From: Abditibacterium sp.
Lineage (GTDB): Bacteria > Armatimonadota > Abditibacteriia > Abditibacteriales > Abditibacteriaceae
Assembly: GCA_965199495.1 (NCBI GenBank)
Contig: CBDASK010000003.1
Span: 3,520,001-3,584,000, forward strand
Length of the DNA: 64,000 nucleotides
Direction: 5' to 3'
In this document: positions 4,486 to 25,143 of the stretch, piece after piece
Layout of the letters: every line of letters starts with the position of its first letter
Position numbering within the stretch: position 1 is the first letter of the stretch
Position numbers and translations under genes: made by a program
The notes under the pieces: generated by a model
Seen by the model: only the letters and a program-made list of their open reading frames with translations
What the model was told of the DNA's origin: nothing
Databases searched by the model: none

Positions 4486-4660
4486 GGAAAATTCAATGTT
4501 TTTCCAACGGATTTGGTGAACGCGTGCAATTTGCGCGCGCTTGAGTTAAAATAGCGGCGTTGCTTTTTATACGTCGTTTATTTTTGACGTATACCTTTTT
4601 CCCGTCATAAGTTGATAAAGAAGTTTCATCGTTTTGACCATTTTGCAATCTTTACCCCTC

Positions 4661-7600
4661 ATGGATCCTCTCTCTTTCTCTCGCGTGTCCGCATCGCGCC
4701 GTGTTCTGGCGTTCGCTTCGAGCGCTGCGCTGTTGGCGGTTATCGCGCCCGGTCTGGCCCAGTCGCAGAGCAGTTTCCCCGTGTTGCCCGCTGCGCCTGC
4801 GATGCCCGAATCGGTGGCGATGACGCGCGCCAATATGAGCGCTTCGCCCACGGCGACCAACAAGCTGACGCCGATCCCGTTTCGGGCGCCGACGGCGCGC
4901 ACGATTCGCGTTTCTAAAATCAACGCGGCCAACGCTTATCCCTACGTCAACCGCGCTGCCAAAGCGCTGGGCGCGGGCAACACGGCGGAGGCGCTCTCGC
5001 TTTATCGCCGCGCTTACCAACTCGATCCGACCAATCCCTACGCGGCGCCCGGCGTGGGCACCGCGCTGCTAATTCAGGGTAAGTTCGCCGAAGCGGCCAC
5101 GACGTTTCGCAATCATTTGGTGACCAATCCGGGCGACATGCAATCGCTGCGTGGTCTGGCCGATGCGCTGACTTTCTCGCGCAAATATCGCGAGGCGTTG
5201 GGCGTCAACAATTACATTTTGGCGCGCTCGCCGCGCAACTTCGATTCGCTCTTTCAAAACGCGCAAATCGCGACTTACGCGGGCGATTACAAACTGTCGG
5301 AAACCTACTTCAACCGCGCTTCGGGCGTCAACAAAAGCAACGCCAAGTTTTGGACGAGCTGGGGCGAATCGCTTTCTTACCGCCGCAATCCGCGCGCGCT
5401 CAACGCGTTCAATCGCGCGTTGCAGTTGCAGCCGAACGATGTGCGCGCCACGATGGGCATCGCCGATTATTATATTTACACCTCGCAGTTCGGTAAAGCC
5501 GTCGAGCCGCTGCAAACCGTGCTGGCGTTACAGCCCAACAACACCGAAGCCTTGATTGGTCTGGGCGATTCGCTCTCCTATATCAACCAGCCGCGCGACG
5601 CCGTGGCTCCTTATCAAAAGGCGCTGCAACTCAAGCCCAATGACCTCAAAGCGCGTTTGGGATTGGGCCGCGCCCTCGTTTATTCGGGCCGCGACGCGCA
5701 GGGCGAAACCGAACTGCGTCGTGTTTTGGCGGTTCAGCCGGGCAATCGCGAGGCTTTGGAAGCTCTCGCCGTTGCGCAAAACGCGACGGCGCCGACGCAG
5801 GCGTTGCAGACTTATCGTACCTTGCTCAATGGCACCAAAGATAGCGCCAAGCGCGCGAGCATTTTGGCTTCGATGGGCGATTTGCAGTTGGGCGCGGGCG
5901 ACTTGAACGCGGCGGCCAGTTCGTATCAACAGGCGTCGCAATTGGCGCCGACTAACGCCGAAATCAATTTGAGCTACGCCCAGATTTTGGGCTACAACGA
6001 CGATTACGCGACGGCTGGCCCCATCGTCGAGCAGGTTTTGGCGGTCGAGCCGACCAACCCGCGCGCCCTCGCGTTGCAGGTGCAGGTCGCGGCCAAGGGC
6101 GGCGACAAAGCGCGCGCGACCGAACTCGCGGCCAAACTGCGCGACATTACGCCCGCAACCGCCGAAGACGCCCTTGCTTTGGCTGACGCTTTGCGCGACG
6201 CGGGCGACCAGAAGGCAGCCACGGCGCTGCTCGTGCGCGCTTCGGGGCTTTCGAGCGACCCGGCAATTGGTCTGCGCATCGCCAACGCGACGCGCGACGG
6301 CGGCGATTACGCCGGTTCGGTCGAACTTTATAACCGTCTGCTGCGCGCCAATCCCAACGATGTTCCGGCCCGCGTCAATCTGTCGCGCGCGCTTTATTAC
6401 GACAACAATCTGAGCGAAGCGACCAATCAGATTGACCAAGTTTTGCAGTTAGACGCGCAGAATCAGGACGCGCTGTTGGTGCGCGCCGAAGTGTTGCTGG
6501 CGGGCGATACCGATCAGGGCCGCACGCAGGCCCAGGACATCGCCAACACGATTTTGGCGGGCGGCGCCAACGCGACGGCTTCCAACATCGCGGGCGAAGT
6601 TTTGACTTCGCGCCAGCAGTTCTCCGCCGCCATTGACCAGTTCCGCAAAACCCTGCAAACCGATCCGAATAACCTGCAAGCGCAGTTGGGTTTGGCGCGC
6701 AACCTTTATTATTCGCGCCAAGTGGACGATTCGATTAGCGCCTATCAAAAGCTGATCGGCGAGGCGCCCGCCGACACCCTGCCGCGTTTGGAATTGGCGC
6801 AGATTTTTCTGGATCGCAACCGTTTCAGCGAGGCCGAAGTGCTGTTCAACGAGGTTCTGACGTTGCAGCAACGCGGCGTGGCTGCCTTGCCCGCCGCGCG
6901 CCGCGCCAGCGAGCGCGGCGAGTTGGCCCGGCTCAATCCGGGCGCATTGCGCAACTCGATCCTCAAAGACAAAACGCTCGCCAAGTTGGCCAGCCTCAAC
7001 GTCAACGATGGCATCGGCAGTCCCGTTGATGCGGGCGCGCTTAAAGTCGTCACCGTCGCGTTTGCGCAGATGAAGCCCAAATCTGCCGCGCACAAAATTG
7101 TTGCGTCAAAAGCCGTCGCGCACAAAGCTGTCGCGCCCAAGCGTTTGGCTCAGTCCGCGTCGCCGACGGTAGGCGTTGGTGGCGATTTGGGCACGGCGGC
7201 ACCGCCCGCCGTTTCGTCACCGATTACTCCCGCCGCGCCGACGCCGGGTGCCGGAGTGCCCGATGCCGGAGCGCCGGGCGCCGATGCTCCGACGATGACG
7301 CCCGACGACACGTTCGTGCCGACCGCGCCGTTGCCCGAAGGCGGCATGCGCGGGCGTCAGATCGTGCCGCGCGTGCCGACGGGCGTGGGCGAAAATAATA
7401 TCTTCACCTCGCCGCTTTCGCCGGGCGCGACGGTCAACTCCACGACTTCCGACAAAGTCAAGGCCTATACCGGCCTGGGCGAAGTCCGTTTGCGTCAGGG
7501 CCGCTACGCCGAGGCGCTCGAACTGTTCAAACAGGCGCTGCAACTCGATCCCAACGCCGTCCCGCCGCGCATCGGCGCGGCGCGTTCGTTGCGTGGCCAG

Positions 7601-10084
7601 AGCCAATTCACCGACGCCCTGACCGAAGTCGGGCGCGCGTTGCAGGTCGCGCCTACCGATTTGAAGGCGCGCGTGCTGCGCGCGCAATTGTTGGCCGACA
7701 CTGGACAAGGCGCCGCCGCGCAAACCGAATTGGACAATCTGATCGGTTCGCTGCCAGAAAATGCGCCGCTCGACACGATTTTGACGTTGTCGGAATCGCT
7801 CAATTCGCTGCGCAACTACACATCGTCTTTGCAATTGCTGGATGTGGCGCTTCAGCTTTATCCCAATGAACCGGCGCCGCTTCGCCTCAAGGCCGAAACG
7901 CTGAACTTTGCCGGACGCTACGACGATTCGCTGAAACTTTACGATCAACTCATCGCCGCCGACCCGCAGGATGGCGACGCGATTCTGGGCAAGGCGCGCG
8001 TTTACAATTATTCCAACCGCTTACCCGAAGCCGAAACGACTTATCGCAGCGTTTTGGCGGTGCAGCCCGAGAACTATCAGGCGGCGACCGAGTTGGCCGA
8101 TGTGTTGGGCCGTCGCGGCAACTATCCCGACGCGATTCAGCTTTACGCTTTGGCGATTCAGGGCAACCCGTCCGATTTGGCGACGCGCGTCGAACTGGCG
8201 CGCGTGCAGCGTTACGCCGGGCGCGAATCGGACGCCGAAGCGACTTTAACGCAGGTGCTCGATTCGGATGGAAACAACGTCGGCGCTTTGACCGAGCGCG
8301 GCATTTTGCGTGGCGTGCAGGGCAGCTATGCGCCCGCCATCGCCGATTTGCAGCAGGCCTTGCAAATCGCGCCCGAAGACACGAATGCGCAATTGGGTTT
8401 GGCCGAAGTTCAGGGCTACGCCGGACAATACGAGCAGAGCATCGCCGGTTATCGCGCGGTTTTGACGCGCGAGCCGAACAACGAAAAGGCGCGCGCCGAA
8501 CTGGGCGAAGTTTTGTCCTATTCGGGCGACGACGCGGGCGCATTGCAGGAATTGGACGCCGTTTTGGCGACCAATCCGACCAACCTGACGGCGCGTCTGA
8601 CTAAAGCCAGCGTGCTGGGACGAGGCAACCGCACAACGGAAGCGGTCAAAATCTACAACGATGTTTTGGCCGCAGACCCGCGCAACGCGCGCGCTCGTTC
8701 TGGTTTAGCCGATACCTACGTGACGAGTCGCCGCTACGCCGACGCGATCAAGGTTTACGATCAACTCATCGCCGACGCGCCGGACAACACGACTTACAAA
8801 ATCGCCCGCGCAAGGGCGTTGGGCTATAACCGCCAATACGTCGCGGCTTCGGATTCGTTGCGCCAAGTCATCACCGCCGAGCCGGATAATCTGGCGGCGC
8901 GTCTGGCGTTTGCCGAAGTCGGCACCAATTCGGGCAATCGCGGACTTCGCAACGGCGCCATCGCCGAATATCAACGTTTGGTCGCCGCCGATGCGACCAA
9001 CGTTCCGGCGCGCGTCGGGTTGGCGCGCGCGCTTTCCTATAACGGTCAATTCAAAGGGGCCGAAGCAACGTTGACGCCGATTGTGGCCGCCGATCCGAAA
9101 AACACCGATGCGCGCATCGCGTTGGCTGATGCGCAGCGTTTCGGTGGCAAGCCGTTCGCCGCGCGCGACAACTACAAAGAAGTTTTGGCCGCCGATCCGA
9201 ACAACGTCGGCGCGAAAAACGGCTTGGACGCGACGCGCCGGGGCACGCGGCCTTCGGTTGGCGTTTCGGGTTCGTATTACAACGATACCAACGGCGTTCG
9301 TTTGCGTTCGATCAACGAGAACGCGGCGCTTCGCACGCGCGGCGGCGTCATCGGCGTCATCGCCGAGCAGGGCCGTTTCCAGCAGGGGCCATACCGCGCC
9401 AATCGTAATAACATTGGCCTCTCGTATGGCAAATCGTTCGGCCCGATTCAGGCCGTGGCTGCCATCAGTCGTCTGAAATATAGCGGCGTCAGCGAGAAAT
9501 TCCTCTACGATTTGTCGCTCGTCAATTCGAGCGTCGAGCGCCGTCGCTACTTCCTGGGAACCGGTCGCCGCGATGTTTACGAGAGCGCCCAGGCCGTCGC
9601 GCAGGGCATCACAGCGACGACCTATCGTGGCGGATTCAACGTGCCAATCGGCAGCAAACTCGACTTCGAGTTGCAGGGCGTCTACTACCGCTATTCGGAC
9701 GACAACTCGCGCTACTCGATTTTGCCTGCGCTCTACTATCGTTTGCGCCCAACGACGCCAACGCTGCGCGTCGGCCTGGGCTACGCCTACGACGATACCA
9801 AGAACCTGCGCAACATCTACTACACGCCGCAAGGCTACTCGGCCTTTTCGGTGTTGGCCGATTACTCCCACGACATCGGCAAGACGCGCTACGGCTTCAA
9901 CGCGGGCGTGCCTTTGACCAGCTCGACCGGTACCAACGGCGTCAACCGTCCGTCCGACACGCTGTTTGGCTACATCTCGCGCGATTTGGGCAACTCGCTC
10001 GAAGTGTTCGCCAACGGCGGCATCGTAAGGTCGCCCGATTTCCATTCGGATCAAATCAATTTCGGCGGCAATTTGTGGTTCTAA
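4661..10084 (+). CDS. Giant secreted TPR protein with C-terminal outer-membrane beta-barrel (PgaA/BcsC/PelB-like architecture)
   Basis: Signal-like N-terminus, two long TPR arrays split by a Pro/Ala/Thr-rich linker, final ~270 aa of amphipathic beta-strands ending NFGGNLWF; start uncertain (4634 or 4661). Confidence 0.8.
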   Translation: MDPLSFSRVSASRRVLAFASSAALLAVIAPGLAQSQSSFPVLPAAPAMPESVAMTRANMSASPTATNKLTPIPFRAPTARTIRVSKINAANAYPYVNRAAKALGAGNTAEALSLYRRAYQLDPTNPYAAPGVGTALLIQGKFAEAATTFRNHLVTNPGDMQSLRGLADALTFSRKYREALGVNNYILARSPRNFDSLFQNAQIATYAGDYKLSETYFNRASGVNKSNAKFWTSWGESLSYRRNPRALNAFNRALQLQPNDVRATMGIADYYIYTSQFGKAVEPLQTVLALQPNNTEALIGLGDSLSYINQPRDAVAPYQKALQLKPNDLKARLGLGRALVYSGRDAQGETELRRVLAVQPGNREALEALAVAQNATAPTQALQTYRTLLNGTKDSAKRASILASMGDLQLGAGDLNAAASSYQQASQLAPTNAEINLSYAQILGYNDDYATAGPIVEQVLAVEPTNPRALALQVQVAAKGGDKARATELAAKLRDITPATAEDALALADALRDAGDQKAATALLVRASGLSSDPAIGLRIANATRDGGDYAGSVELYNRLLRANPNDVPARVNLSRALYYDNNLSEATNQIDQVLQLDAQNQDALLVRAEVLLAGDTDQGRTQAQDIANTILAGGANATASNIAGEVLTSRQQFSAAIDQFRKTLQTDPNNLQAQLGLARNLYYSRQVDDSISAYQKLIGEAPADTLPRLELAQIFLDRNRFSEAEVLFNEVLTLQQRGVAALPAARRASERGELARLNPGALRNSILKDKTLAKLASLNVNDGIGSPVDAGALKVVTVAFAQMKPKSAAHKIVASKAVAHKAVAPKRLAQSASPTVGVGGDLGTAAPPAVSSPITPAAPTPGAGVPDAGAPGADAPTMTPDDTFVPTAPLPEGGMRGRQIVPRVPTGVGENNIFTSPLSPGATVNSTTSDKVKAYTGLGEVRLRQGRYAEALELFKQALQLDPNAVPPRIGAARSLRGQSQFTDALTEVGRALQVAPTDLKARVLRAQLLADTGQGAAAQTELDNLIGSLPENAPLDTILTLSESLNSLRNYTSSLQLLDVALQLYPNEPAPLRLKAETLNFAGRYDDSLKLYDQLIAADPQDGDAILGKARVYNYSNRLPEAETTYRSVLAVQPENYQAATELADVLGRRGNYPDAIQLYALAIQGNPSDLATRVELARVQRYAGRESDAEATLTQVLDSDGNNVGALTERGILRGVQGSYAPAIADLQQALQIAPEDTNAQLGLAEVQGYAGQYEQSIAGYRAVLTREPNNEKARAELGEVLSYSGDDAGALQELDAVLATNPTNLTARLTKASVLGRGNRTTEAVKIYNDVLAADPRNARARSGLADTYVTSRRYADAIKVYDQLIADAPDNTTYKIARARALGYNRQYVAASDSLRQVITAEPDNLAARLAFAEVGTNSGNRGLRNGAIAEYQRLVAADATNVPARVGLARALSYNGQFKGAEATLTPIVAADPKNTDARIALADAQRFGGKPFAARDNYKEVLAADPNNVGAKNGLDATRRGTRPSVGVSGSYYNDTNGVRLRSINENAALRTRGGVIGVIAEQGRFQQGPYRANRNNIGLSYGKSFGPIQAVAAISRLKYSGVSEKFLYDLSLVNSSVERRRYFLGTGRRDVYESAQAVAQGITATTYRGGFNVPIGSKLDFELQGVYYRYSDDNSRYSILPALYYRLRPTTPTLRVGLGYAYDDTKNLRNIYYTPQGYSAFSVLADYSHDIGKTRYGFNAGVPLTSSTGTNGVNRPSDTLFGYISRDLGNSLEVFANGGIVRSPDFHSDQINFGGNLWF

Positions 10085-12150: not shown

Positions 12151-12246
12151 AATGTAGGGGCGGGGTTCTCCCGCCCAAAATGTCAGCTATCATAATCGTT
12201 CGTGATCCATTGTGCCTTTTGGGCGGGAGAACCCCGCCCCTACATT
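12151..12246. repeat. GTAG-type REP doublet (REPIN-like)
   Basis: 30-bp arms aatgtaggggcggggttctcccgcccaaaa (12151-12180) and its reverse complement (12217-12246); GTAG foot followed by hairpin. Confidence 0.9.
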
Positions 12247-12518: not shown

Positions 12519-14330
12519 ATGAAATTGACCCCAGTGGGCAAAGTGACGGTGTTGGTTGTGGTGGCGGGCGCCGCGTTTGGCGTCTACCGTTCGTGGGACA
12601 AAATCGCGCCCGGAGCGGCCAACAAAGATTCGGTGACACCACAGAAAATTGACCTGCCGACCAATGGAGCCACGGCGGGTTCGTTGACCCAGACCGACTT
12701 TCAGGTCGCGGGCGACAATCCAGGTTGCACCGACAAAGCCGAAGTCCGCGTTTTGGGCTACGCCTGGAATGCTCAGCAGGGAATGTTGCTGGCCAATGGC
12801 GGCCCGCAGGCGACGCAGGGCAGCTTGATGTGCGAGAACGGCGTGAACCTGAAATGGGCGCGCCAGGACGACAACTCCAAATTGCAGGAATCGTTGGTCA
12901 CGTTCGCGACGGCGCTGAGCCGGGGCGAGAAGAACCCGACCAAAGGCGCGCATTTCGTGACGATTATGGGTGACGGTGGCGCGGCGTTTATCAAGCCGCT
13001 CAACGATTCGCTGCGCAGAATCGGGCCGGAATATGGGGCGAAAATCGTTGATGCCATCGGCTATTCGCGCGGCGAAGATAAGTTCATGGGGCCAGTCGCG
13101 TGGCGCGACAATCCCGCCGCTTCCAAAGGCGGCGTGGTTGCCGGAGTTTTGCGCGATGGCGACTGGAATATCGCGCAGAAATGGTTGGGCGACAACGGTC
13201 TCAAAACCAATCCCGACGAGAAAACCTGGGATCCCGACGCGCTCAACTGGATTTCGGCCAACGATTATCTCGATGCCGTCGAGAAGTATGTCGCCGGTTA
13301 TTCCGAGACGCGGCCCGTGGTGCGCAACGGCGTGAAAACCGGCGAAACCAAAACGATTCGCGTTGATGGCGTCGTGACATGGACGCCGGGCGATGTCACG
13401 GTCGCTCAGAAAAAGGGCGGTCTGGTTTCGATTATTTCGACGCGCGAATACTCGTCGCAGATGCCGTGCATCGTGATCGGCATCGACAAATGGTGCCGCG
13501 AGAATAAGGGCACCGTGCAAAGCATGATCAAGGCGATTGGCGAGGGCAGCCAACAGATTCAGAGCAACCCGGCGGCTCTCAAGCGTTCGAGCGCGATTGC
13601 CGCGCAGGTTTTCGCCGAAAAGGGCGCCGATGCCGGTTACTGGGAGAAGTATTTCAAGGGTACGACCGAGCGCGACGCGACCGGCGAAATGGTGCAGTTG
13701 GGTGGTTCGTCGGTGAACAATCTGGCCGATAGCCTGCTGGCGTTTGGCCAGGTGCCGGGCAGCGCGAATTTGGTGGCGACGACTTACACCGTCTTTGGCA
13801 ACCTGGTGAAGTCGCAATACCCGGAATTCGTGCCGTCGTTCGACCCGGCGTCGAGCGTGATAGACGGTTCATATTTGAAGGCAGTCGCCGACAAGATGAC
13901 GAATCGCCAGAAATCGCTCATTGCCAAAGCCAAGCCGTCGTTTGTAGCCGCCAAACAGAACGGAGCCACGCGCAAATTGGTGAGCCGCCGTCAGTGGAAC
14001 ATCCAGTTCAACCCCGGCAAGGCGACGTTTACACCCGCCGCCAAAGCCGAGTTGAACCAGTTGGGCCGCGACCTGCTCATCGCGGGCGGCACGACGGTTG
14101 AAGTTCACGGGCACACCGATAACAGCGGCGACCCGCGCACTTCGATGCCGTTGTCGGAAGCGCGCGCGTTCGCGGTCTCGAATTACCTGAAAACGTTGTC
14201 GCCGGTCAACTTTCCGGCGGGACGAGTTCAGGTTTTCGCGCACGGCGAGAGCCAGCCGCTCGTGCCCAACACGTCGGCGGCGAATAAAGCCAAAAATCGT
14301 CGCGTCGAGATCGTGTTGCGCGCGGCGTAA
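12519..14330 (+). CDS. Membrane-anchored ABC substrate-binding (NMT1/SsuA-like) domain fused to C-terminal OmpA-like peptidoglycan-binding domain
   Basis: N-terminal TM after SD aaggaaag; C-terminal VEVHGHTDNSG, LSEARA, GESQP, NRRVEI OmpA_C motifs; adjacent ABC genes. Confidence 0.85.
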   Translation: MKLTPVGKVTVLVVVAGAAFGVYRSWDKIAPGAANKDSVTPQKIDLPTNGATAGSLTQTDFQVAGDNPGCTDKAEVRVLGYAWNAQQGMLLANGGPQATQGSLMCENGVNLKWARQDDNSKLQESLVTFATALSRGEKNPTKGAHFVTIMGDGGAAFIKPLNDSLRRIGPEYGAKIVDAIGYSRGEDKFMGPVAWRDNPAASKGGVVAGVLRDGDWNIAQKWLGDNGLKTNPDEKTWDPDALNWISANDYLDAVEKYVAGYSETRPVVRNGVKTGETKTIRVDGVVTWTPGDVTVAQKKGGLVSIISTREYSSQMPCIVIGIDKWCRENKGTVQSMIKAIGEGSQQIQSNPAALKRSSAIAAQVFAEKGADAGYWEKYFKGTTERDATGEMVQLGGSSVNNLADSLLAFGQVPGSANLVATTYTVFGNLVKSQYPEFVPSFDPASSVIDGSYLKAVADKMTNRQKSLIAKAKPSFVAAKQNGATRKLVSRRQWNIQFNPGKATFTPAAKAELNQLGRDLLIAGGTTVEVHGHTDNSGDPRTSMPLSEARAFAVSNYLKTLSPVNFPAGRVQVFAHGESQPLVPNTSAANKAKNRRVEIVLRAA

Positions 14331-14380
14331 ATTATGTTTCGATTCGCGACGAGCCTTTCGGGGTTCGTCGCGGGTTGAAC

Positions 14381-14573
14381 GTTGGAGGAAAGCGCTGACG
14401 CGTGCCCCTCACCCTAACCCTCTCCCACAGGAGAGGGGACACTCGCTCGAAAGTTGGAATTGCTTCAACTTGCTTAATAAGTGAGTTGAAAACGCTTTGG
14501 CCTACGAGCAGGTGTCCCCTCTCCTGAGGGAGAGGGTTAGGGTGAGGGGCACGCGTCAGCGCTTTCCTCCAAC
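14381..14573. repeat. Near-perfect ~65-bp inverted repeat with CCCCTCACCCTAACCCTCTCCC core
   Basis: gttggaggaaagcgctgacgcgtgcccctcaccctaaccctctccc... (from 14381) mirrored ending at 14573; preceded by a hairpin at ~14345-14372. Confidence 0.9.
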
Positions 14574-14638
14574 CCAAAACTCCAACACGCTAAAAATCAG
14601 TGAAGAGGCCAAACGTCACCGCTTTCTTCCCCACTCCC

Positions 14639-15484
14639 ATGCTCCAAAAACTCTTCGTCCAGTCCGCTCCAACGCTCGCGCCCAAACGCGCGCGACGTTT
14701 GGAACCGTTGGCGCTCTTGCTCCCCAATCGCGTCGTCGCGCGGCCACTTTTAGTTCTTGTCGCCGTCGCCGAAGCGATGATTTTTCTCGCACTCTGGATC
14801 GCTTCGCCGTTCAAAGTTTTGCCCAATCCGCTCGACGTGGCTGCTGCGCTGCAACGACTGTGGCTCGAACAGGGATTGGGCCGCGAACTCGCCACCTCGT
14901 TCGCGCTCAATCTCGAAGCGTTGATAATTGCTTCGATTCTGTCGCTGGGATTGGCTTACCTCACGGTTTTCCCGTTTATGCGACCGCTTGTCGCGGCGCT
15001 CAGCAAAGGCCGCTTTTTGTCGCTAACCGGATTCACGCTCCTATTCACGCTCGCGCTGGGCGGCGGACACGCGCTGAAACTGGGATTATTGGTCTTCGCC
15101 GTCACGGTGTTTTACCTGACTTCGATGGCGTCGGTGATTCAATCCATCCCGCGCAGCGAATTCGATCACGCGCGCACCTTGCGCATGAGCGAGGCGCGCG
15201 TGACATGGGAAGTCGTAATTCTCGGCACGCTTTCGCAGGCGTTTGAAGTGTTGCGTCAAAACGCCGCCATCGGCTGGATGATGCTCACGCTTGTGGAAGG
15301 CATCGTGCGCGGCGAAGGCGGCATCGGCGCGATGCTGTTGAACGAGAACAAACATTTTTTGATCGCCGAAGTTTTCGCCATTCAACTGGTGATTTTGAGC
15401 TTCGGCCTGATGCAGGATTACGGACTGCAACTGTTGCGCAAATTGGCGTGTCCCTACGCCGATTTGACGCTTGAACGCCGATGA
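14639..15484 (+). CDS. ABC transporter permease, NitT/TauT/SsuC-like
   Basis: Multi-TM; LPNPLDVAAAL, EAA-like loop FDHARTLRMS, GIGAML; ATGA overlap with ATPase. Confidence 0.85.
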   Translation: MLQKLFVQSAPTLAPKRARRLEPLALLLPNRVVARPLLVLVAVAEAMIFLALWIASPFKVLPNPLDVAAALQRLWLEQGLGRELATSFALNLEALIIASILSLGLAYLTVFPFMRPLVAALSKGRFLSLTGFTLLFTLALGGGHALKLGLLVFAVTVFYLTSMASVIQSIPRSEFDHARTLRMSEARVTWEVVILGTLSQAFEVLRQNAAIGWMMLTLVEGIVRGEGGIGAMLLNENKHFLIAEVFAIQLVILSFGLMQDYGLQLLRKLACPYADLTLERR

Positions 15485-16308
15485 ACTATCTTTACGAAAC
15501 GCGCGAGACGTTGCTGCAAATCGAGAACGTCTCGTTTTCGCACGGGCCAAACCTGATTTTGCGCGATGTCGATTTGACCGTCAAAAACTTGGTGCGTCCC
15601 GAACTGCAACAGGGACAAGTCGTCGCTTTGCTCGGCCCATCGGGTGTCGGCAAAACGACATTATTGCGTTTGTTGGCCGGACTCGAAACGCCCGACGCGG
15701 GCACGATTTGCCTCTCGGATGGAAAGCCAATCGCGCGTGGACAAATCGGCGTTGTGGCTCAGCATTATCCGTTGTTTGCGCATCGAACCGTGCTGAGCAA
15801 CTTAATCGTCGCCGGAAAACAGGCACATTTGGGCGGACGCGAAGCGCGCAACAAAGCCGTCGAATTGTTGGATCGATTCGATTTGCGCGAGCAATCTGAG
15901 CAGTTCCCGTCGCAACTGTCGGGCGGGCAGCGCCAACGCGTCGCAATCGCTCAACAGTTCATGGGCTGCGATGGGTTTCTGTTGTTGGACGAACCGTTTT
16001 CGGGCTTGGACATCATCGCGCAAGACGCCGTGATTCGGTTTATCGCCGAAATGGCAAGTCGCGACGAGAAAATGACGTTTTTGGTGATTACCCACGACAT
16101 CGCGGCGGCGATGCAGATCGCTGACACGATTTATCTAATGGGCCGCGACCGCGACGCCGACAACAGCAGCCACGCCGTGCCGGGCGCGCGCATTCAGGAA
16201 CGTTACGACTTGGCCGCGCGCGGTTTGGCGTGGCGGCCCAACATCGTGGAGTTGCCGGAGTTCGATGAACTGCGCCACGAAATTCGGGCGCGCTTCGCGA
16301 GTTTGTAG
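15481..16308 (+). CDS. ABC transporter ATP-binding protein, NitT/TauT/SsuB-like
   Basis: Walker A GPSGVGKT, signature LSGGQRQR, Walker B LLLDEPF, H-loop ITHD. Confidence 0.95.
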   Translation: MNYLYETRETLLQIENVSFSHGPNLILRDVDLTVKNLVRPELQQGQVVALLGPSGVGKTTLLRLLAGLETPDAGTICLSDGKPIARGQIGVVAQHYPLFAHRTVLSNLIVAGKQAHLGGREARNKAVELLDRFDLREQSEQFPSQLSGGQRQRVAIAQQFMGCDGFLLLDEPFSGLDIIAQDAVIRFIAEMASRDEKMTFLVITHDIAAAMQIADTIYLMGRDRDADNSSHAVPGARIQERYDLAARGLAWRPNIVELPEFDELRHEIRARFASL

Positions 16309-16319
16309 GTTTTGCTAAA

Positions 16320-16442
16320 TGTAGAGACACCGACCGGGTGCCCCTTGGGCGGATGTCTAAAAAGGTAATGAACCCGCTAATTCTAAAGCAAGTTCGACGT
16401 TTTAGACATCCGCCCAAAGGGCACCCAGTCGGTGTCTCTACA
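16320..16442. repeat. GTAG-type REP doublet carrying a gggtgcccYttggg micro-insert in each arm
   Basis: tgtagagacaccgaccgggtgccccttgggcggatgtctaaaa and near-exact reverse complement ending 16442. Confidence 0.85.
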
Positions 16443-16517
16443 AGTGGATCGGCGACCGTTGGAATATATAAAGCCGATTTTCAGTAAAATAACCATACGG
16501 CATTCGCCGTTTCTTCG

Positions 16518-17348
16518 ATGAAAAACCGTTATCTGGCCGCGTTGCAGGAGCAATATAATTTGTTGGGTATCGGTTCTATCGCGGCGGTCTCGGCGGCGAT
16601 GGTGAGTCCACTGCCGCTTTTGGTCGGTCTGGTTGTCGAGGCGGCGTATCTGATTTTTGTGCCCGACAGCAAATGGTATGCGGCGCGTTTATCGCGCCAG
16701 CACGATGCCGAGATTCAGGCGCAACGCGACAAAATCAAAGCCGAGATTTTGCCTCAACTGCGACCTCCACTGCAAAAGCGTTTCGCCAAGCTGGAAGAAG
16801 ATCGTGCCGATATTGACAAGCAAGTCGCCGACGATAAAGTTTGGATGATGGAAGTCGTGCGCAAACTCGATTATCTGTTGGACAAATTTTTGCAATTTGC
16901 GCTCAAAGACGAACAATTTCGCGTTTATTTGTATGAAGCCCGTCTGGAAAAGTTGGGTGGCAACAACAAACGCCCGCCCGAACCGACCGACCAATGGGCG
17001 CGCGAAACTGTCGGCTTGCTTCAACAAGATTACGATAAAGACATCGCCGAATTGACCGCGCAATTCGAGCGCGAAACCGACGAAAACACCGGCGCGGTTT
17101 TGCAAAAGCGCCTCGAAGTTTTGCAAAGGCGGCGCGAGTTCGTGGCGCGCATCGGAAAAATCGTAGTGAATTTGTCCCAACAGTTGCACCTTTTGGAAGA
17201 TACTTTTGGTCTGATCAACGACGAACTGTTGGCGCGTCCGCCCGAACAGGTGTTGGGCGACATCGAAGACGTGGTGTCACAGACCAAAATCATGACCGAC
17301 GTTTTGGAAGAAATGGCGCCTTACGAACGGATGTTGGCCTCGATATGA
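16518..17348 (+). CDS. Hypothetical protein: N-terminal hydrophobic hairpin plus coiled-coil
   Basis: Hydrophobic residues ~14-48 followed by charged heptad-rich helices; host codon usage; in cluster with PspA. Confidence 0.8.
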   Translation: MKNRYLAALQEQYNLLGIGSIAAVSAAMVSPLPLLVGLVVEAAYLIFVPDSKWYAARLSRQHDAEIQAQRDKIKAEILPQLRPPLQKRFAKLEEDRADIDKQVADDKVWMMEVVRKLDYLLDKFLQFALKDEQFRVYLYEARLEKLGGNNKRPPEPTDQWARETVGLLQQDYDKDIAELTAQFERETDENTGAVLQKRLEVLQRRREFVARIGKIVVNLSQQLHLLEDTFGLINDELLARPPEQVLGDIEDVVSQTKIMTDVLEEMAPYERMLASI

Positions 17349-17462
17349 GGGACAAGTGGCAAGGAGCAGGGAACAAGGATGTGTCGAGCGATTGTATCTT
17401 CGCCCGATAGTTATAATTTCTGCCCTTGCGCCGTGTTCCTTGCCCCTTATCCCCTGTCCCTA
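17348..17462. repeat. Inverted arrays of degenerate 7-mers (agggaca/aggagca type)
   Basis: Purine-rich 7-nt periodic tract 17348-17378 and pyrimidine-rich mirror 17424-17462. Confidence 0.75.
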
Positions 17463-17470
17463 AAATTACT

Positions 17471-18190
17471 ATGTCCCTGCGCGATACTTTGCGAAAAGCG
17501 GCGAGCCTGGTCGTCGAACTGCCGCCGCAAGCCACCGAACTCGATTTGAAGTCGAGCGATATTGATCTCGACGATTGGCCCGACACCGATTTGCCCGCCG
17601 ACGCGCGCTTGCCGGGCGCCGTGGCTGCATCGCCGACTGGCTCGCAAACCATCGCACAGTTGGTGCGCAAAGCGGACGGGCCAAATCTCGATCAAATCGA
17701 AATTACGCAGGTGCCCGCTGGTGCCGTGGGCGAAAACGCGCTCGATTTCGCGGCGATTTACGCGGCGGCGAAATTGCCAAAGACGCCGTTTGGCGCCGAC
17801 GAAATGTTGAATGTTTTGGGTTCGATGCCCGCCGATGTGCCGTTGCAAACCAAACGCGTCACGGTCAAAGCGGTTTTGGGCGGCATGGCGGGCATGGGCG
17901 CGTCACCCGAAAACATCGTGGCCGATGCTTCGCGTAAACTGGCGGCGCTGCAAGCGTTTCATGGCTTTATGGAGCGCAAGACAAACGAAACTCTCGAAAA
18001 CGGTCGAAGTCAAATCGCCGAACTCGAACGTCAAATCGAAGCGCATCGTCAAGCGATGCAGAACGCGCAAAGCGAATTGGCGCGCGTCACGCAAGGTTGC
18101 GAGAGCGAAGCCGAAAAATTAAACGAAGTGCTGGAATTTTTCAGCCTCAACTTAGGGGACAAGGAGCAAGGAGCAGGGGACAAGGTTTGA
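17471..18190 (+). CDS. Hypothetical helical/coiled-coil protein upstream of PspA
   Basis: ATG 17471 (MSLRDTLRKAA); low-complexity linker, helical core LDFAAIYAAAKLP...IVADASRKLAAL, C-terminal coiled coil. Confidence 0.8.
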   Translation: MSLRDTLRKAASLVVELPPQATELDLKSSDIDLDDWPDTDLPADARLPGAVAASPTGSQTIAQLVRKADGPNLDQIEITQVPAGAVGENALDFAAIYAAAKLPKTPFGADEMLNVLGSMPADVPLQTKRVTVKAVLGGMAGMGASPENIVADASRKLAALQAFHGFMERKTNETLENGRSQIAELERQIEAHRQAMQNAQSELARVTQGCESEAEKLNEVLEFFSLNLGDKEQGAGDKV

Positions 18191-18256
18191 GCGCGCGACA
18201 TCACTTCCAACTTCCCAATCGCTGACCCTGTTCCCTGTTCCTTGCCACTTGTCCCT
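18152..18256. repeat. Inverted arrays of degenerate 7-mers
   Basis: ttaggggacaaggagcaaggagcaggggacaagg (18152-18185) and ccctgttccctgttccttgccacttgtccct (18226-18256). Confidence 0.75.
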
Positions 18257-18264
18257 TTAACACT

Positions 18265-19026
18265 ATGTTCAAACGAATTTCCAATCTTTTTAGCGCGATA
18301 ATGAACGCCTTCGTTTCGGGCGCCGAGCGCGCCAATCCCAAGATGATGCTCGAACAGGAAAAAGAAAACCTGCGCAAGCAAATCGCGAATTATAATCAGG
18401 GTTTGGCCGCGCACGCCGGTTTGTGCGAGCGCCTGATGACGCAGGTCAAAAAAGACGAGGCGCTCGAAAAAGATTTGCGCGCCAAAACGACCGCCAACCT
18501 GCGCGCGGGCAACCGCGAATATGCCGGACAACTCGCGCTCCAACTGCAAGCCACGTCGGCGCGCTTGCAAGAAAATAGCGCGCAATTGGCCGAAGCCGAG
18601 ACGACTTATAAAGAGTTGGTTAAGGCGCGCGACGTTTCGATTCAGGGCGCCAAGAAGAAAATCGAAGATTTGAAATACGCGATTTCCGACATGGAAGTCA
18701 AGAAAGCGACCGCCGAAATGACCGAAATGGCGAGCGGAATGATCTCCTCGATTGGCGGTAGTGGCGACACCTTGAATCGTTTGGAAGAGATGGTCGGCGA
18801 AGAGCGCGAGAAAGCGGCGGGCCGCGCCCGCGTCGCGCGCGATAGTCTGAATACGACCGATTTTCAAATGGCCGAGGCCGAACAGCACGCTCTGGCCGAT
18901 CAAGCTCTGGCCGATTTCGCCGCCGCCGAAGGCATGGCGCTCGACCCGGTGATGCCCAAAGATACCAACGCCACGCCCGCACTGAATAAGCAGATGGGGC
19001 CGCCGGATCAAATCGAATTGAGCTGA
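18265..19026 (+). CDS. pspA: PspA/IM30 (Vipp1, ESCRT-III-like) family protein
   Basis: Amphipathic MFKRISNLFSA start, E.aNPKMMLEQ motif, GNREYA, long coiled coil, LNRLEEMV...A.ARVA. Confidence 0.85.
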   Translation: MFKRISNLFSAIMNAFVSGAERANPKMMLEQEKENLRKQIANYNQGLAAHAGLCERLMTQVKKDEALEKDLRAKTTANLRAGNREYAGQLALQLQATSARLQENSAQLAEAETTYKELVKARDVSIQGAKKKIEDLKYAISDMEVKKATAEMTEMASGMISSIGGSGDTLNRLEEMVGEEREKAAGRARVARDSLNTTDFQMAEAEQHALADQALADFAAAEGMALDPVMPKDTNATPALNKQMGPPDQIELS

Positions 19027-19044
19027 TTGATTCAATGCGTAACG

Positions 19045-19076
19045 AAAACCCGTCGCGAATTTCGCGGCGGGTTTTT
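19045..19076 (+). terminator. Rho-independent terminator after pspA
   Basis: aaaacccgtcgcgaa-t-ttcgcggcgggttttt. Confidence 0.75.
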
Positions 19077-19081
19077 CGCTA

Positions 19082-19232
19082 TGCTCCGTAGGTTTCACCT
19101 ACGGCAGAGGGCGCGAGCACCGGACGTGCTTCGCACTCTTGAAATTAAATATTTCGAGGGTCTTTCCGAATTTTCAAGTGCGAAGCACGCCCGGCGTTCG
19201 CGCCCTCTGCCGTAGGTGAAACCTACGGAGCA
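19082..19232. repeat. ~60-bp imperfect inverted repeat with internal CCGTAGGT..ACCTACGG palindromes
   Basis: tgctccgtaggtttcacctacggcagagggcgcga... mirrored by ...tcgcgccctctgccgtaggtgaaacctacggagca. Confidence 0.85.
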
Positions 19233-19254: not shown

Positions 19255-19863
19255 ATGAACCTCGCCCGCATCTTCACCGCCATCCATCGCCGCGCGCGTT
19301 TAATCTATTTGCGCACCCGTTTTCCTCGCGCGAACTTTGGCGCGCGCAACGATATTCGGTCTGGCCTCAAACTGCGACTGGCGCCCGATGCAAAGTTTCA
19401 AGTTGGCGCTGGCTGCATTTTGGATTACGATACGACTATCGAATGTTCCGGCACTCTGAACATCGGCGAACGGGTGATTTTCGGGCATCATTGCACCATT
19501 GGCTGCAAAGAACGCATCGAAATCGGCGACGATTGTCTGCTGGCGGAAATGGTTTCGATTCGCGATCACGATCATAATTTCGAGAGCTTGATCATTCCGA
19601 TTCGCGCGCAGGGCGCGACTTGCGCGCCCGTGAAAATCGGGCGCGACGTTTGGCTGGGCGCCAAAGTGACGGTTCTCAAAGGCGTAACGATTGGCGATGG
19701 CGCGATTATCGGTGCCAACGCCGTTGTCACTCGCGATATTCCCGCGCTGGCGATTGCCGTCGGCATTCCGGCGCGCGTAATTCGGATGCGCGATGGTTCT
19801 CCATTAGCCACAGAGGACACAGAGGACGCACAGAGAAAAACAGAGAGAACGAAGGAATTGTAA
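19255..19863 (+). CDS. Hexapeptide-repeat (left-handed beta-helix) O-acyltransferase
   Basis: IEIGDDCLLA, DHDH, VKIGRDVWLGAKVTVLKGVTIGDGAIIGANAVVTRDIP, GIPARVI. Confidence 0.9.
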   Translation: MNLARIFTAIHRRARLIYLRTRFPRANFGARNDIRSGLKLRLAPDAKFQVGAGCILDYDTTIECSGTLNIGERVIFGHHCTIGCKERIEIGDDCLLAEMVSIRDHDHNFESLIIPIRAQGATCAPVKIGRDVWLGAKVTVLKGVTIGDGAIIGANAVVTRDIPALAIAVGIPARVIRMRDGSPLATEDTEDAQRKTERTKEL

Positions 19864-19956
19864 ACCAAAAGAATATCGAATTTTGACTATCTTTTCCTTT
19901 TTTCTTCGTTCCCTCTGTTTTTCTCTGTGCGTCCTCCGTGTCCTCTGTGGCTAATG
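19802..19956. repeat. Fold-back element of 9-nt periodic CACAGAG repeats
   Basis: cattagccacagaggacacagaggacgcacagagaaaaacagagagaacgaag and near-exact mirror at 19904-19956. Confidence 0.9.
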
Positions 19957-19978: not shown

Positions 19979-21304
19979 ATGATTCATCTCGTTTTGAAGC
20001 CGCACCGCGATAATTTGCACGCGGGCACGACCGATTTGCAGAAATTATTCGTGTTGCTCAAAGTGATTCCAACGGCAGCGTTATCGCAGGTGCGCCCGCC
20101 TCTGGCGCTGGCGGTCGTGATTGACACCAGCGGCTCGATGCGCGATGGTGTCGGCGCTTCCAAGTTGGAGCAAGCCGTATCAGCCACGGCGGCGATTTTG
20201 AGCGATCCGCGTTTGTCGCCCAATGATTTGGTGACGCTCGTTCAATTCGACGATGTCGCCCGCGTCATTTTGCCGCTTTGCCCGTTGGGCGATGGGCAAA
20301 GCGCGCGCGCGGCGTTGAAACGATTCGAGGATTATTCGGGCGGCACGCAGGTCGGCCAGGGATTATTGGCGGCGCGCCACGAACTTTCGCGCATCGAGCA
20401 GGGCGGCGTGGCTCAACGCGTGCTGCTGCTCACCGACGGTCAGGCGTTCGACCCGCAGGATTGTCGCGTGGCGGCGGGGCAGTTGGCGCAACTCAACGCG
20501 CCGCTCGTGACGATTGGCGTGGGCGACGATTACAACGAAGAGTTGCTGCGCGATTTGGCCGAAATCGGGCGCGGGCGGCCCTATCACATGGAAGCGATGG
20601 AGCGGTTGGGCGAGATTTTTCAACTCGAAGTTCAAAGCTCGTTGCGCGAAGTCATCACCGATTTAAAAGCGCAAATCCAAACCGTCGCGGGCGTCAAACT
20701 CGACAGCGTGACGCGGGTTTACCCCGATTTGGCCGAAATGCACGTCGTCGGCGCGGGTGAGAAAATGAACGATGTCGCGCTGGGCAATGTGCAGGCGGGC
20801 GATTATACCGTCTTCGTTTTGGAACTCACGCTCGAAGGCCGCGCCCGCAACGAAGGCCGCGCGCGCTTGGCACAACTCAAATTATCAGGCGCCGTTCCCA
20901 ACTCGGCGAGCGCGGTCGAATCGCCGGTTGAAGATATTGTCGTGGCGTTTAGCGCCGAAGAAGAGGCCGCCGAAACCGTGGACGAAGAAGTTTTGGGCTA
21001 CGTCCAGCAGCGCAACGCCGACCGGTTGGTGCAAAATGCGCTACGCCTCGCGCCCGGCGATTTGTCCGCCGCGCGCGCTTCGCTGCAAAGCGCGCTCGAA
21101 CTGACCAAACGCATCGGCAACCCCGCCGTGACGCGCTTGCTGCAAGATTCGCTTGACGAACTGGCCGACCGGGGCAAATTGTCGTCGGGCACGCGCAAAA
21201 CTATCGCATTGGAAACGCGCACGCGCACCATTAAAACGCAAAGCGCCGACGCGCTCTCGGATGTGCCGGGCGAAGACGAAATTCGGCGCTTGACGGGCGC
21301 GTAG
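19979..21304 (+). CDS. vWA domain protein (YfbK/CLCA-like)
   Basis: MIDAS motif DTSGS, GGT, LLLTDG, TIGVGDDYNEELL. Confidence 0.9.
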   Translation: MIHLVLKPHRDNLHAGTTDLQKLFVLLKVIPTAALSQVRPPLALAVVIDTSGSMRDGVGASKLEQAVSATAAILSDPRLSPNDLVTLVQFDDVARVILPLCPLGDGQSARAALKRFEDYSGGTQVGQGLLAARHELSRIEQGGVAQRVLLLTDGQAFDPQDCRVAAGQLAQLNAPLVTIGVGDDYNEELLRDLAEIGRGRPYHMEAMERLGEIFQLEVQSSLREVITDLKAQIQTVAGVKLDSVTRVYPDLAEMHVVGAGEKMNDVALGNVQAGDYTVFVLELTLEGRARNEGRARLAQLKLSGAVPNSASAVESPVEDIVVAFSAEEEAAETVDEEVLGYVQQRNADRLVQNALRLAPGDLSAARASLQSALELTKRIGNPAVTRLLQDSLDELADRGKLSSGTRKTIALETRTRTIKTQSADALSDVPGEDEIRRLTGA

Positions 21305-21323
21305 TTTTTATCGGACTCTTATC

Positions 21324-21490
21324 CACACCCCTCTGTCCTACGGACATCTCCCCCTCCGAAAGGGGGAGAGGCGCTCGAAACCTCGGCATCGCCGCAACTT
21401 GCGCGAGTAATGAACGGTTCATGTGCATTCTCCCCTTTTGGAGGGGGCGGGTGCCCTTTGGGCGGATCGCGGAGCGACAGAGGGGGTGTG
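21324..21490. repeat. Imperfect inverted repeat of the same CCCCCTCCGAAAGGGGGAGA family as 10125-10376, with micro-insert in right arm
   Basis: catctccccctccgaaagggggaga shared with ~10196-10220; mirror at ~21428-21490. Confidence 0.8.
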
Positions 21491-21579
21491 GGTCATGCCT
21501 ACCAAAACATTAGCAAATCCTTAATCATTGCGATAAAATATGACAAGCGGCTTTGCGCTGCACAAACATCCGACGTTCG

Positions 21580-24500
21580 ATGAATTGCCCCCTCTGTCAA
21601 TCCGCTAATCCCGCCGAGACCCGGCGCTGCCGCGCGTGTGGCGCGGCGTTGAAATCTCAATCGAGTGCAAACGGCGCGGCGCATTTGCCCGATGCGTTGC
21701 CCGATGGCGCCCTGCTCATCGGCACCTACGCCGTCGAAGGCGTGTTGGGTCAGGGCGGGTTTGGTATTACCTATCGCTCGCACGACCAAATGTTAGATCG
21801 GCACGTCGCGATCAAAGAATTTTTCCCGTCCGGTTGCCGCCGCGAAAACGCCGAAGTGTGGCCCGCACGCGGATTATCCGACACCGATTATCGTGAGGCG
21901 CGCGCGCAGTTTTTGGCCGAGGCGCGCGTTTTGGCGCGTTGCCATCACGCGGGCATCGTCAGCGTGCATACGGCGTTCGAGGCCAACAAAACCGCCTATA
22001 TGGTGATGGAAATGCTGCACGGCAAGACGCTGGCGCAACTCATCACGGCGCGCGGTGGCCGCATGAACGAAACCGAAGCCGTCGAGATCATCGAGCGCGT
22101 CGGCGACGCGTTGGGTTTCGTTCACGATTTGGATTTGCTGCACCGCGACATCAAGCCCGATAACATTATCGTGTGCGACGATGGCCGCGTGATGTTGATT
22201 GATTTCGGCACGGCGCGCGAGTTCGTCAAAGGTCAGGCGCAGGGCCAAACCGTCGTCGTCACGCCGGGCTACGCGCCGCTCGAACAATATGCCAAACAGG
22301 CCAAGCGCGGCGCTTTTACCGATATTTACAGCTTGGCCGCGACGCTCTATCATCTGCTGACGGGCCAGATGCCGCCGTCGGCTTCGGATCGAGCGATGGG
22401 CGTGCAATTGCGGCCCGTGCGCGAGTTCAATCCGAACGTGAGCGCGAGCGTGGCTTATGCGACCGAAACCGGGTTGCGAATGGAAATCGCCAAACGCCCG
22501 CAGAGCGTGACCGAATTTCTCGATTTGCTGCACGCGCCCGTTCCGCAAGTCGAAGCCGAACCGCTTTTCCAATCGCGATTAATTGATTTATCGCTCGACG
22601 AAGAGGCCGATGCCGACGCGAATTTGTTGCCGCCGACGCTTCCGCCCGATGCCGTGCGCGCGCGCCAGCAATTGTGGCAAAGCGCGATGCCCTCCGCCAA
22701 CGCGCAACCGGTGCAAATCGCGCCGCAACGCGTGTTCGACCCCAATGGACAACCGACTGCGCCTGTGCCGCCGTCGGCTTATAACCCGGCGAGCGGACGC
22801 ATTCAGGTCCAAACTTCCAACGACTCCGACGGTTCGATGGCCGGTTTTTGGTGGTTGCTGGCGATTATCGTGATTATCGGCTTATTTGCTCTCGCGGGTT
22901 CCTCCGGTAGTCGTCGCAATAACTCGCCGTATCCTTCGTCCGGTTCTTCGTCTGGCGGTTATTCGTCCTCTCCCAATTATCGCTCACCAAGCTTTAACCC
23001 GTCGTCTTCGAGCGATTATAATTCGTGGTCTGCCAGCGAACGCGAGATTAAAACTAATGCTGCTCAGGGCGCCTGGGATGTCTTGCCAGTCATCGCTCCG
23101 GCTTCGGTCAAAGAGTTGCCGACAACTAATAACAGCGCCGCTCCACCGATCCAATTTTCTAACATGGGCGGCGGAATCGAATTTTCGCCCGACGGCAAAA
23201 GGTTGGCCTACATTGACGGTCAGGCGGTTTTGCGCGTTTTGCGCTTGCCGGGGCGTCAACTCGTGCGTTCGATCAAACTCGATAAAACTTACCCGCCAAT
23301 TGACGTAAAATTTTCGCCGGATAACGAAACAATCGCGGTGACGCAAAGCAAAAAAGCCGATTCTAACGGACGATATTCAGAAGGCATTCGCGCGGAAATT
23401 TGGAGTTTGCGAAATGGCAAAAAACTGGGGGTTGTTGATGGGAATTCATCAAAAGACTATATCAATCCGCTGGCGATTTTGAATGACGGGCAATTGTTAT
23501 TGCGCAAATTAGCGAGTGGCAACGAAAATATCGAAGTCGCTGCATTGGATCCGAAAACCGGGAAGATTGGCAAAACGCAGGTTTCGTTTCCCAATACCAC
23601 CGAGGTGACGTATAGCGTGATTTCGCCCGATGGAAAAAAGCTCGTCTTTGGCGATTCGCTGGGGCGTTTGCGCTGGCTTGATTTGAAAACCGGAGAGCAA
23701 ATCGCCGAGCATTCCGCTACGATGAGCCAGAGCGATTTATTAAAAAACTTTGGTCGAAGCTATAACGGGAGTGGTGATCCTTCTCTGCCAATAATGGGCA
23801 TTGACTATGCGCTCAACGGCGAGTGGCTGGCCAGTCGCACCGAGGGAGGAATTCAAGTTTTCGATTCTAAAGCTCACGAAGTCGGTTCGCTAATTATTGA
23901 TAACACAGGCCTGTTTTTCTCCATGTCGCCCGATGGACAATGGTTGGCGGCGCGCGGCAGTTTGCCCTATAGTCCCGAAGGCACGTTGCTTTACAACATC
24001 AAGACCAAACAAAAAATCCGATTGGATGCGCCTTACGATACGATGCGCGATTTCGGCTTTTCGCAGGACGGCAAGCAGCTTTATGGCATTTTTGCGGACG
24101 GTGCAAAACAACAGTTCGTTACTTGGAATGTGGATGCGAACGCGAAAGTGGCGGAAACGCCGAGTCTTTTTGCTTACTCCAGCGTCTCTACTTTTACGTC
24201 AATTTCCGGTTCTTTGGCTTCATCGGACGAATATATCGCAATTGTCGGAGAAGACTATGTTGAGATTTGCTTTAACAATGGCTCGTATATGAAAAATTTG
24301 GGTGTATCGGGCGCCTCTGCGATTCTGTTCTCGCCCGACGGCAAACTGTTGGCGGTGCGCAAAAAAGAAGCGGATACGATTCAACTCTGGGATGTGGCTA
24401 ATGGGCAAATGATACGTCAATTGAGTAAAAATACGACGACTTCATCTGCAACAGACATCGGCGAAAAAAACGCGCGTTCGATGGCGTTCTCGGCGGATAA

Positions 24501-25134: not shown

Positions 25135-25143
25135 TTTCGATTC

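Follow-up and report, generated by a model that had tools for sequence, protein, structure and literature searches.

What could bind together, in one run of bacterial genes, a solute-binding protein (SBP) tied to the cell wall, an ABC (ATP-binding cassette) importer, two helical proteins, and a member of the PspA family? The question is raised by six genes within the window, a stretch of 64,000 nucleotides from Abditibacterium sp. (positions 3,520,001 to 3,584,000 of contig CBDASK010000003.1; the genome is called G000 below). The answer proposed here, to which we would give a probability of roughly one half, is that the cluster encodes an inner-membrane machine for maintaining the envelope, in which a wall-tethered SBP and an active importer would act together with a membrane scaffold, the product of the gene beginning at 16518, that gathers PspA and the product of the gene beginning at 17471. 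(These two genes and their proteins will be called 16518 and 17471.) The outline of such a cassette has already been published; what is new is a five-gene core to which PspA is optional, the position of 16518 as hub, a shared N-terminal anchor, and a copy of the core borne by a phage. The cluster is laid out as follows.

12519..14330, + strand: SBP-OmpA gene (603 aa; N-terminal transmembrane (TM) anchor, SsuA/NMT1-like solute-binding domain, C-terminal OmpA_C peptidoglycan-binding domain)
14381..14573, intergenic: inverted repeat with 69-nt arms (2 genome matches)
14600..15484, + strand: NitT/TauT-type ABC permease gene (likelier start, the ATG at 14639)
15481..16308, + strand: ABC ATPase gene (PF00005; ATGA overlap with the permease gene)
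16320..16442, intergenic: inverted repeat, member of a family spread over the genome (31 genome matches)
16518..17348, + strand: 16518 gene (276 aa, all-helical, with a hydrophobic-hairpin anchor; no Pfam family)
17471..18190, + strand: 17471 gene (239 aa, soluble, helical)
18265..19026, + strand: PspA/IM30 gene, divergent, ESCRT-III-like (PF04012)
19043..19078, + strand: hairpin resembling an intrinsic terminator, with a T run (-24.7 kcal/mol)

An earlier note, made from the nucleotides alone, had described six co-oriented genes coupled in part by ATGA and closed by a hairpin, and so they are: all six open reading frames (ORFs) are present on the + strand, from the first start at 12519 to the last end at 19026. 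The hairpin is absent from the list given by a scan for consensus terminators, despite the stability of its predicted fold. Domain calls likewise agree with the note on the SBP-OmpA fusion, the importer and PspA, as do hydropathy and structural models on the two helical proteins. In the SBP-OmpA protein, the OmpA domain (PF00691) occupies residues 497-594 (E 2e-16), the one hydrophobic segment is N-terminal, and OmpA-like motifs are found in most of 65 homologues (GHTD-type in 58, LSxxRA in 62, NRR in 63). The middle domain by itself matches NMT1 weakly (E 0.085), a 22-sequence profile of its family finds SsuA (3uif, E 4e-4), and the protein of a related locus scores NMT1 at E 5e-15. The permease lies nearest to NtrB/TauC/SaoP (E 3-8e-5, under the family cut-offs), and its homologue in locus L031 begins at the Met equivalent to 14639. 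Its coupling loop reads HARTLRMS in most homologues; the usual EAA loop of ABC permeases carries Gly. The ATPase (ABC_tran, E 7e-30) has Walker A, LSGGQ, Walker B, D-loop, and H-loop all intact, and all 53 homologues keep Walker A, Walker B, and the H-loop, 52 of them the signature also. By its motifs the ATPase would be that of an active importer, solute translocation being the prediction. The permease and ATPase, the binding domain, and the ATGA coupling all recall the NitT/TauT/SsuABC importers, from which the cluster differs in that its SBP is predicted to be anchored in the membrane and tethered to the wall through OmpA_C, with matches falling below family cut-offs.

The 16518 protein has a hydrophobic stretch at residues 15-50, modeled by AlphaFold 2 (confidence score pLDDT 93) as a two-helix hairpin followed by long helices. 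Neither 17471 nor PspA has a hydrophobic segment. The model of 17471 (pLDDT 84) begins with a helix and runs through a disordered linker into a small helical domain and then a helix of 83 residues, and its first helix (hydrophobic moment 0.55-0.66) is about as amphipathic as that of PspA. PspA itself matches PF04012 (PspA_IM30) at 44 bits, over a cut-off of 33.9, has an amphipathic N-terminal helix, and is the sole match to that family in G000. By these features it belongs with PspA, IM30, and Vipp1; polymerization and membrane remodeling are predicted.

The genes form one conserved envelope system, as the note had supposed and as comparison of neighborhoods bears out. A scan of named genomes gave 132 loci, the best 80 of which were kept, and 39 of these are well flanked (at least 6 kb upstream and at least 4 kb downstream). 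The genomes compared are kin, so counts of co-occurrence are not independent. The SBP domain was matched in 30 of 201 genomes of the phylum, strongly in 28, and all 28 also carry 16518, as against 44 of 201 overall. The two genes are co-oriented within about 6 kb in 20 of the 28, adjacent but inverted in one, and unlinked or on other contigs in seven. Among the best 80 loci, 17471 comes after 16518 in 68. Well-flanked loci contain 17471 in 35 cases, a co-oriented SBP-OmpA gene in 31 (26 of the same subfamily, 5 of the NMT1 type), PspA in 10, a gene encoding an AAA protein in 7, and a second TM-anchored SBP, of the SBP_bac_11 family, in 10. The module is present in 17 of 18 genomes of the Abditibacteriaceae, with a stable gene order, and the named close homologues of the cluster's proteins come from Abditibacteriota/Armatimonadota.

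A different picture emerges for PspA. Where SBP-OmpA, permease, and ATPase occur together in well-flanked loci (25 cases), PspA is linked in only 6, all from Abditibacteriaceae, and a broader profile, under which an unrelated canonical PspA reaches 112 bits, found none in the other 19 either. At the thresholds used, neither the AAA nor this subfamily of PspA is found in the twelve strong-SBP genomes outside the family. These twelve have canonical PspA elsewhere: at a distance of 1-3 Mb in G036, G052, G103, G147, and G184; in six more, on other contigs; and in G075 about 6.5 kb upstream on the opposite strand. Since PspA is missing from those 19 loci, and its subfamily and the AAA from those twelve genomes, the core of the system in Armatimonadota is five genes (SBP-OmpA, permease, ATPase, 16518, and 17471), and PspA with the AAA is an optional add-on. 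The note had divided the cluster into an ABC trio and a PspA trio, but the line falls elsewhere, with 16518 and 17471 staying with the transporter; the expected co-occurrence of the transporter with all three downstream genes holds for 16518 and 17471 and fails for PspA in 19 of the 25 loci.

The same question may be asked from the side of PspA. A metagenome scan with the window PspA gave 35 loci, 16 of them sufficiently flanked (two locus pairs are identical sequences). A gene of the 16518 family is present in 12 of the 16, as had been anticipated of a protein that travels with PspA, the AAA also in 12, an SBP2-type gene in 7, and 17471 in 4. The order varies: PspA, AAA, 16518-like, SBP in L177 and L187; SBP2, SBP2, PspA, 16518-like, AAA in L180 and L181. 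Comparison by hhalign confirms the homology of these distant copies to 16518 (98.5%). In 14 further stretches around distant AAA or PspA hits, PspA adjoins the AAA in 9, and in 3 of those a still more distant gene for a helical protein with two TM helices (2TM) lies immediately upstream (hhalign 95-96%). Yet another arrangement, in genomes of family f8 (L131:8491-11246; L135:345-3954), has in order a TonB_C protein, PspA, optionally a TM-anchored SBP-like protein, and a 16518-like gene. Because it accompanies both the transporter core and 12 of the 16 PspA-side loci, 16518 is the single gene common to the two sides, hence the hub of the system.

The subfamily of the window PspA is found in 19 of 201 phylum genomes: G000, 17 of 18 family members, and G010. 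A close orthologue of the AAA is found in G000 and the same proportion of family genomes (17/18). In G000 it is an orphan of 544 aa at C3:743487-745121, with 72% identity to the AAA found after PspA in relatives, and lies on the same contig as the cluster, some 2.8 Mb away and thus not linked in the window locus. The AAA of the operons described by Ravi et al. (below) has an inactive N-terminal AAA domain; in the proteins examined here, the AAA Pfam domain covers only residues ~309-436 of the 545-553. The AAA is a candidate for a dedicated, tandem-type partner of this PspA subfamily. The earlier note, otherwise correct on the gene set, missed this unlinked partner, and it missed as well the inverted repeats in the spacers.

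Those spacers (269, 209, 122, and 74 nt) might seem to divide the cluster. They contain inverted repeats, however, and long REP/BIME-like repeats occupy nearly every intergenic space of the region (12151-12246, 14381-14573, 16320-16442, 17348-17453, 18144-18256, 19082-19232, and 19802-19956). Four of five arms tested have 9-38 matches in the genome (the 14381 arm has 2), and two of the repeats within the cluster belong to genome-wide families, with 31 and 17 matches. In the relative G072, several of the spacers shrink to 10-40 nt. With repeats of genome-wide families on one hand and shortened spacers on the other, the spacers look like insertions, not borders between modules.

A system of this kind has been described: Ravi et al. 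2024 (PMC11237479) predicted in silico operons containing PspA, PBPB-OmpA, permease, ABC ATPase, "TM+Snf7", and tandem AAA genes (example, OGG56892.1). The earlier note had left it open that the context might be uncatalogued; from its predicted gene content the window cluster is a variant of that cassette. Both have PspA, the PBPB-OmpA fusion, the permease, the ATPase, and, right after the ATPase, a TM-anchored helical gene, and the partner AAA exists, linked in 7 of the 39 well-flanked loci. The order in their Archangium row (PspA, SIG+PBPB, TM-helical) is seen again in L135. The window differs in that PspA is last and not first, the AAA is unlinked, a further gene (17471) encodes a soluble protein, PspA can be absent from the locus elsewhere in the phylum, and 16518 lacks detectable homology to Snf7 or PspA. 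A search with distant homologues of 16518 gave 8 proteins, none with a name linking it to OGG56892.1.

No experimental study of the cassette was found in the literature searched, a search that excluded subscription journals and the supplements of a preprint on huge phages; the main text of Popp et al. 2022 has 0 occurrences of OmpA or NMT1. According to a 2025 review (PMC7619361), a Vps4-like ATPase for PspA polymers appears to be absent in bacteria, and novel PspA partners have undetermined roles. The only PspA detected in G000 co-distributes with a dedicated AAA, and the window locus offers a compact version, nearly universal in its family, of a candidate answer to the missing ATPase. Relatives provide natural variants (the core without PspA, PspA without the transporter, and a TM-anchored PspA in place of 16518) that show which interactions deserve testing. 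The gain, then, is refinement and testability and not a new system.

What sort of protein is 16518? No Pfam family is common to more than 4 of its 105 members, and 17471 has no Pfam match. Its place in the cluster and its topology agree with the TM-anchored divergent Snf7 protein of Ravi et al. Snf7 (PF03357) has no match in G000 at E<=1, an insensitive test in that control genomes likewise have none over the cut-off, and ESCRT-III is absent among the fold matches listed for 16518. The mycobacterial pair PspA-PspM (Rv2744c-Rv2743c) presents a parallel, in that PspA there too has as its neighbor a membrane protein with two helices and a helical soluble part, and Rv2744c forms a complex with Rv2743c according to the review (PMC7619361). 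The nearest Pfam-labeled cluster to 16518 in the ESM Atlas is indeed Rv2743c (score 0.87), a lead only. PspM is reported to be restricted to mycobacteria and corynebacteria, however, and the system has no ClgR and no PspN. PF25587 (PspM) has no match in Pfam scans of the 105 members and distant homologues, none is listed at 16518 loci, and 0 of 201 genomes pass the cut-off; nor does any control genome, so that 16518 may still be a remote relative. Of the Atlas clusters that reach 0.95 against 16518, those assigned to a phylum come mostly from Verrucomicrobiota, Acidobacteriota, and Planctomycetota. Kinship with XpaC (Halogen_Hydrol) or TelA, which the earlier note had raised, finds no echo: neither family is listed for 16518 or 17471 in the Pfam scans, with no profile-profile comparison behind this.

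Searches by fold led to nothing specific. Foldseek against PDB and BFVD gave no match to 16518 at E<=0.001, and the best match by VIA (Z 10.6) is a designed helical repeat, a generic helical match. For 17471 the best (Z 5.9) are coiled coils, also generic, from searches that barely covered its small helical domain, and a match of its profile to TAL effectors is an artefact of summed repeats with 0 significant stretches. Sequence searches of PDB with 16518 profiles and the window PspA gave nothing at E<0.01, and PHROGs have no family for 16518, 17471, or PspA. A predicted complex of 16518, PspA(1-228), and 17471(57-230) scored 0.00, evidence neither way. In one protein, P0359 (539 aa), an ABC ATPase and the soluble part of the 16518 family are joined in a single chain, which speaks for the machine proposed here; it is a single sequence, possibly an artefact of assembly or deletion. 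In a cluster look-up, one cluster carried the label "flavodoxin", a label only.

A shared anchor may connect 16518 to the SBPs. GK (or GR) immediately precedes the TM helix in 47 of 50 SBP-OmpA proteins, 13 of 14 NMT1-OmpA proteins, and 15 of 20 SBP2 proteins, compared with 10 of 681 ORFs of G000 that have an early hydrophobic helix (one of the ten being the window's own SBP-OmpA gene). With a cruder window, the counts are 27/48, 8/14, and 7/19 against 7/551 in the control. The soluble domain of SBP2 is unrelated to that of SBP-OmpA (hhalign 0.3%). A shared N-terminal motif on unrelated soluble domains suggests that the GK+TM anchor acts as a docking element.

From anatomy and co-occurrence we infer all of the protein interactions, the ligand, and the role of the AAA in the machine proposed at the outset. 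SBP-OmpA would span the distance from inner membrane to peptidoglycan and bind a small solute, probably anionic or derived from the envelope, which the ABC importer would take in. Its conserved anchor helix would dock on the hairpin of 16518. The latter would serve as a membrane scaffold that recruits 17471 and, in Abditibacteriaceae, PspA, positioning PspA polymers at the points that join membrane to wall. Disassembly or recycling of these polymers may fall to the unlinked AAA (G000:C3:743487-745121), which acts in trans in this scheme. Since the transport motifs are intact, ligand binding or import, coupled to a PspA scaffold, is more probable than mechanosensing alone.

Several observations weigh against this machine. 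PspA is absent from most transporter loci and, with the AAA, from the twelve genomes outside the family, and the permease is present in only 3 of 16 PspA-side loci. There is no detectable homology between 16518 and PspA (hhalign 0.1-0.3%) or the 2TM-PspA-like family described below (3.6%), and 16518 is equated with the "SIG+TM+Snf7" protein of Ravi et al. by gene position only. The anchor pattern was designed after the sequences had been viewed, among kin that are not independent, and L157 has the anchor motif with a TM-PspA-like gene where 16518 would be. A bolder version of the proposal seems to us rather unlikely: that the 16518 family is an undescribed multi-phylum membrane receptor, not Snf7, that recruits PspA, into which swappable periplasmic domains (with or without OmpA, with or without ABC) plug via the GK+TM anchor, giving signaling from wall to ESCRT-III-like polymer that has its own disassembly AAA and was captured by giant phages.

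Perhaps, instead, nothing is transported. The earlier note favored sensing over import, and one can imagine SBP-OmpA using its TM helix to report strain between wall and membrane or the presence of a ligand in the periplasm, with the ABC proteins as a mechanotransmitter that switches 16518 and PspA. TM-anchored SBPs do stand beside 16518-family, PspA, and AAA genes in stretches with no permease (L177, L180, L181, L187, L135, L147, and L148), and on this account the module may have a sensing role. The anchor common to unrelated SBP folds and the atypical coupling loop of the permease would also fit. Taken as a whole the idea is doubtful, given the intact motifs of the ATPase, the SsuA/NMT1-like binding domain, which is 43% identical in a homologue from another phylum, as expected of a site for a specific ligand, and a permease and ATPase of the NitT/TauT importer type, not MacB/FtsEX. 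(The MacB/FtsEX type is the known ABC type for mechanotransmission.) Or perhaps there is no machine, only an ordinary nutrient importer with 16518 and 17471 as accessories, to which PspA and the AAA were appended in Abditibacteriaceae without functional coupling. The 19 transporter loci without PspA speak for this, as do the AAA unlinked in G000 and the transporter unlinked from 16518-17471-PspA in G003, G033, and G059. It is nonetheless unlikely, because members of the 16518 family, even at low identity, turn up beside PspA and AAA in several different arrangements, four other loci (below) have a 2TM-PspA-like gene ahead of SBP-OmpA, and the same combination is reported in another lineage by Ravi et al.

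Copies in phages raise one more alternative, a phage-conflict module, protecting the membrane during infection or excluding superinfection, that large phages have captured. A five-gene core without PspA is found at L151:6006-11639 (IMGVR_UViG_3300044957_000763, G203), a virus record of 479 kb with terminal repeats, 100% complete by CheckV. A gene of the gp30.3 family is inserted there between the ATPase gene and the 16518 homologue. The phage SBP shares 57-62% identity with its counterparts in Armatimonadota, and some 70 kb away the record has a canonical PspA beside a possible vWA gene. Related cassettes are found on virus records of 143, 165, and 462 kb, and ABC systems adjoin 15 of 189 huge-phage pspA genes, according to a 2026 preprint (10.64898/2026.10.24.761521). 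Set against these is the near universality of the module in its bacterial family (17 of 18 genomes), in stable order, unlike patchy defense islands, and no defense genes were found among the scanned window neighbors (PADLOC not being part of that search). A role in conflict is thus very unlikely. Viral pattern scans with 17471 and PspA confirmed none, an insensitive test, as L151 holds a 17471 homologue.

The related cassettes (L152:8211-14339; L153:8355-13930; L154:5999-11688 in virus records; L157:5775-10763 in a bacterium, from 1 of 151 genomes of another phylum) have the order 17471-like coiled coil, 2TM-PspA-like protein, SBP-OmpA, permease, ATPase. They share with the window the SBP-OmpA family (32-45% identity), the permease, the ATPase, and the gene resembling 17471 (hhalign 83.7%), and differ in that a membrane-anchored PspA homologue (hhalign 40-67%; PF04012 at E 0.013 for the L157 copy) replaces both 16518 and soluble PspA. 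No relation of this 2TM family to 16518 is detectable, so the transporter is served by two distinct families of membrane-anchored helical proteins, either of which could be the TM+Snf7 of Ravi et al. Just upstream of one such cassette, at L152:2615-5980, is a protein of 1121 aa, phage portal-like, with a C-terminal domain similar to 2H-phosphoesterase/Acb1.

The SBP_bac_11-type TM-anchored protein (~400 aa) is exemplified by L032:3497-4750, L033:12795-13988, L045, L047, and L048. Its gene lies ahead of the cluster or, in the absence of ABC genes, immediately upstream of the 16518 homologue, and G000 has no tblastn match to it. The SBP of the window cluster had no plasmid match among 72,556 records.

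Scanned neighbors in the window are GNAT, hexapeptide acetyltransferase, vWA, kinase, and WD40 proteins; PspB/C/F and LiaI/F/R/S are not matched among them, in accord with the earlier note and unlike PspABCF and LiaIHFSR systems. Downstream of the cluster (19979-26208) lie genes for a vWA protein, a zinc-ribbon Ser/Thr kinase with WD40 repeats, and a zinc-ribbon WD40 protein, whose conservation beside the cluster in relatives is not apparent. Upstream (4634-10084) is a gene for a protein of 1816 aa with long TPR-like repeats and, as read from its sequence, a possible beta-barrel C-terminus.

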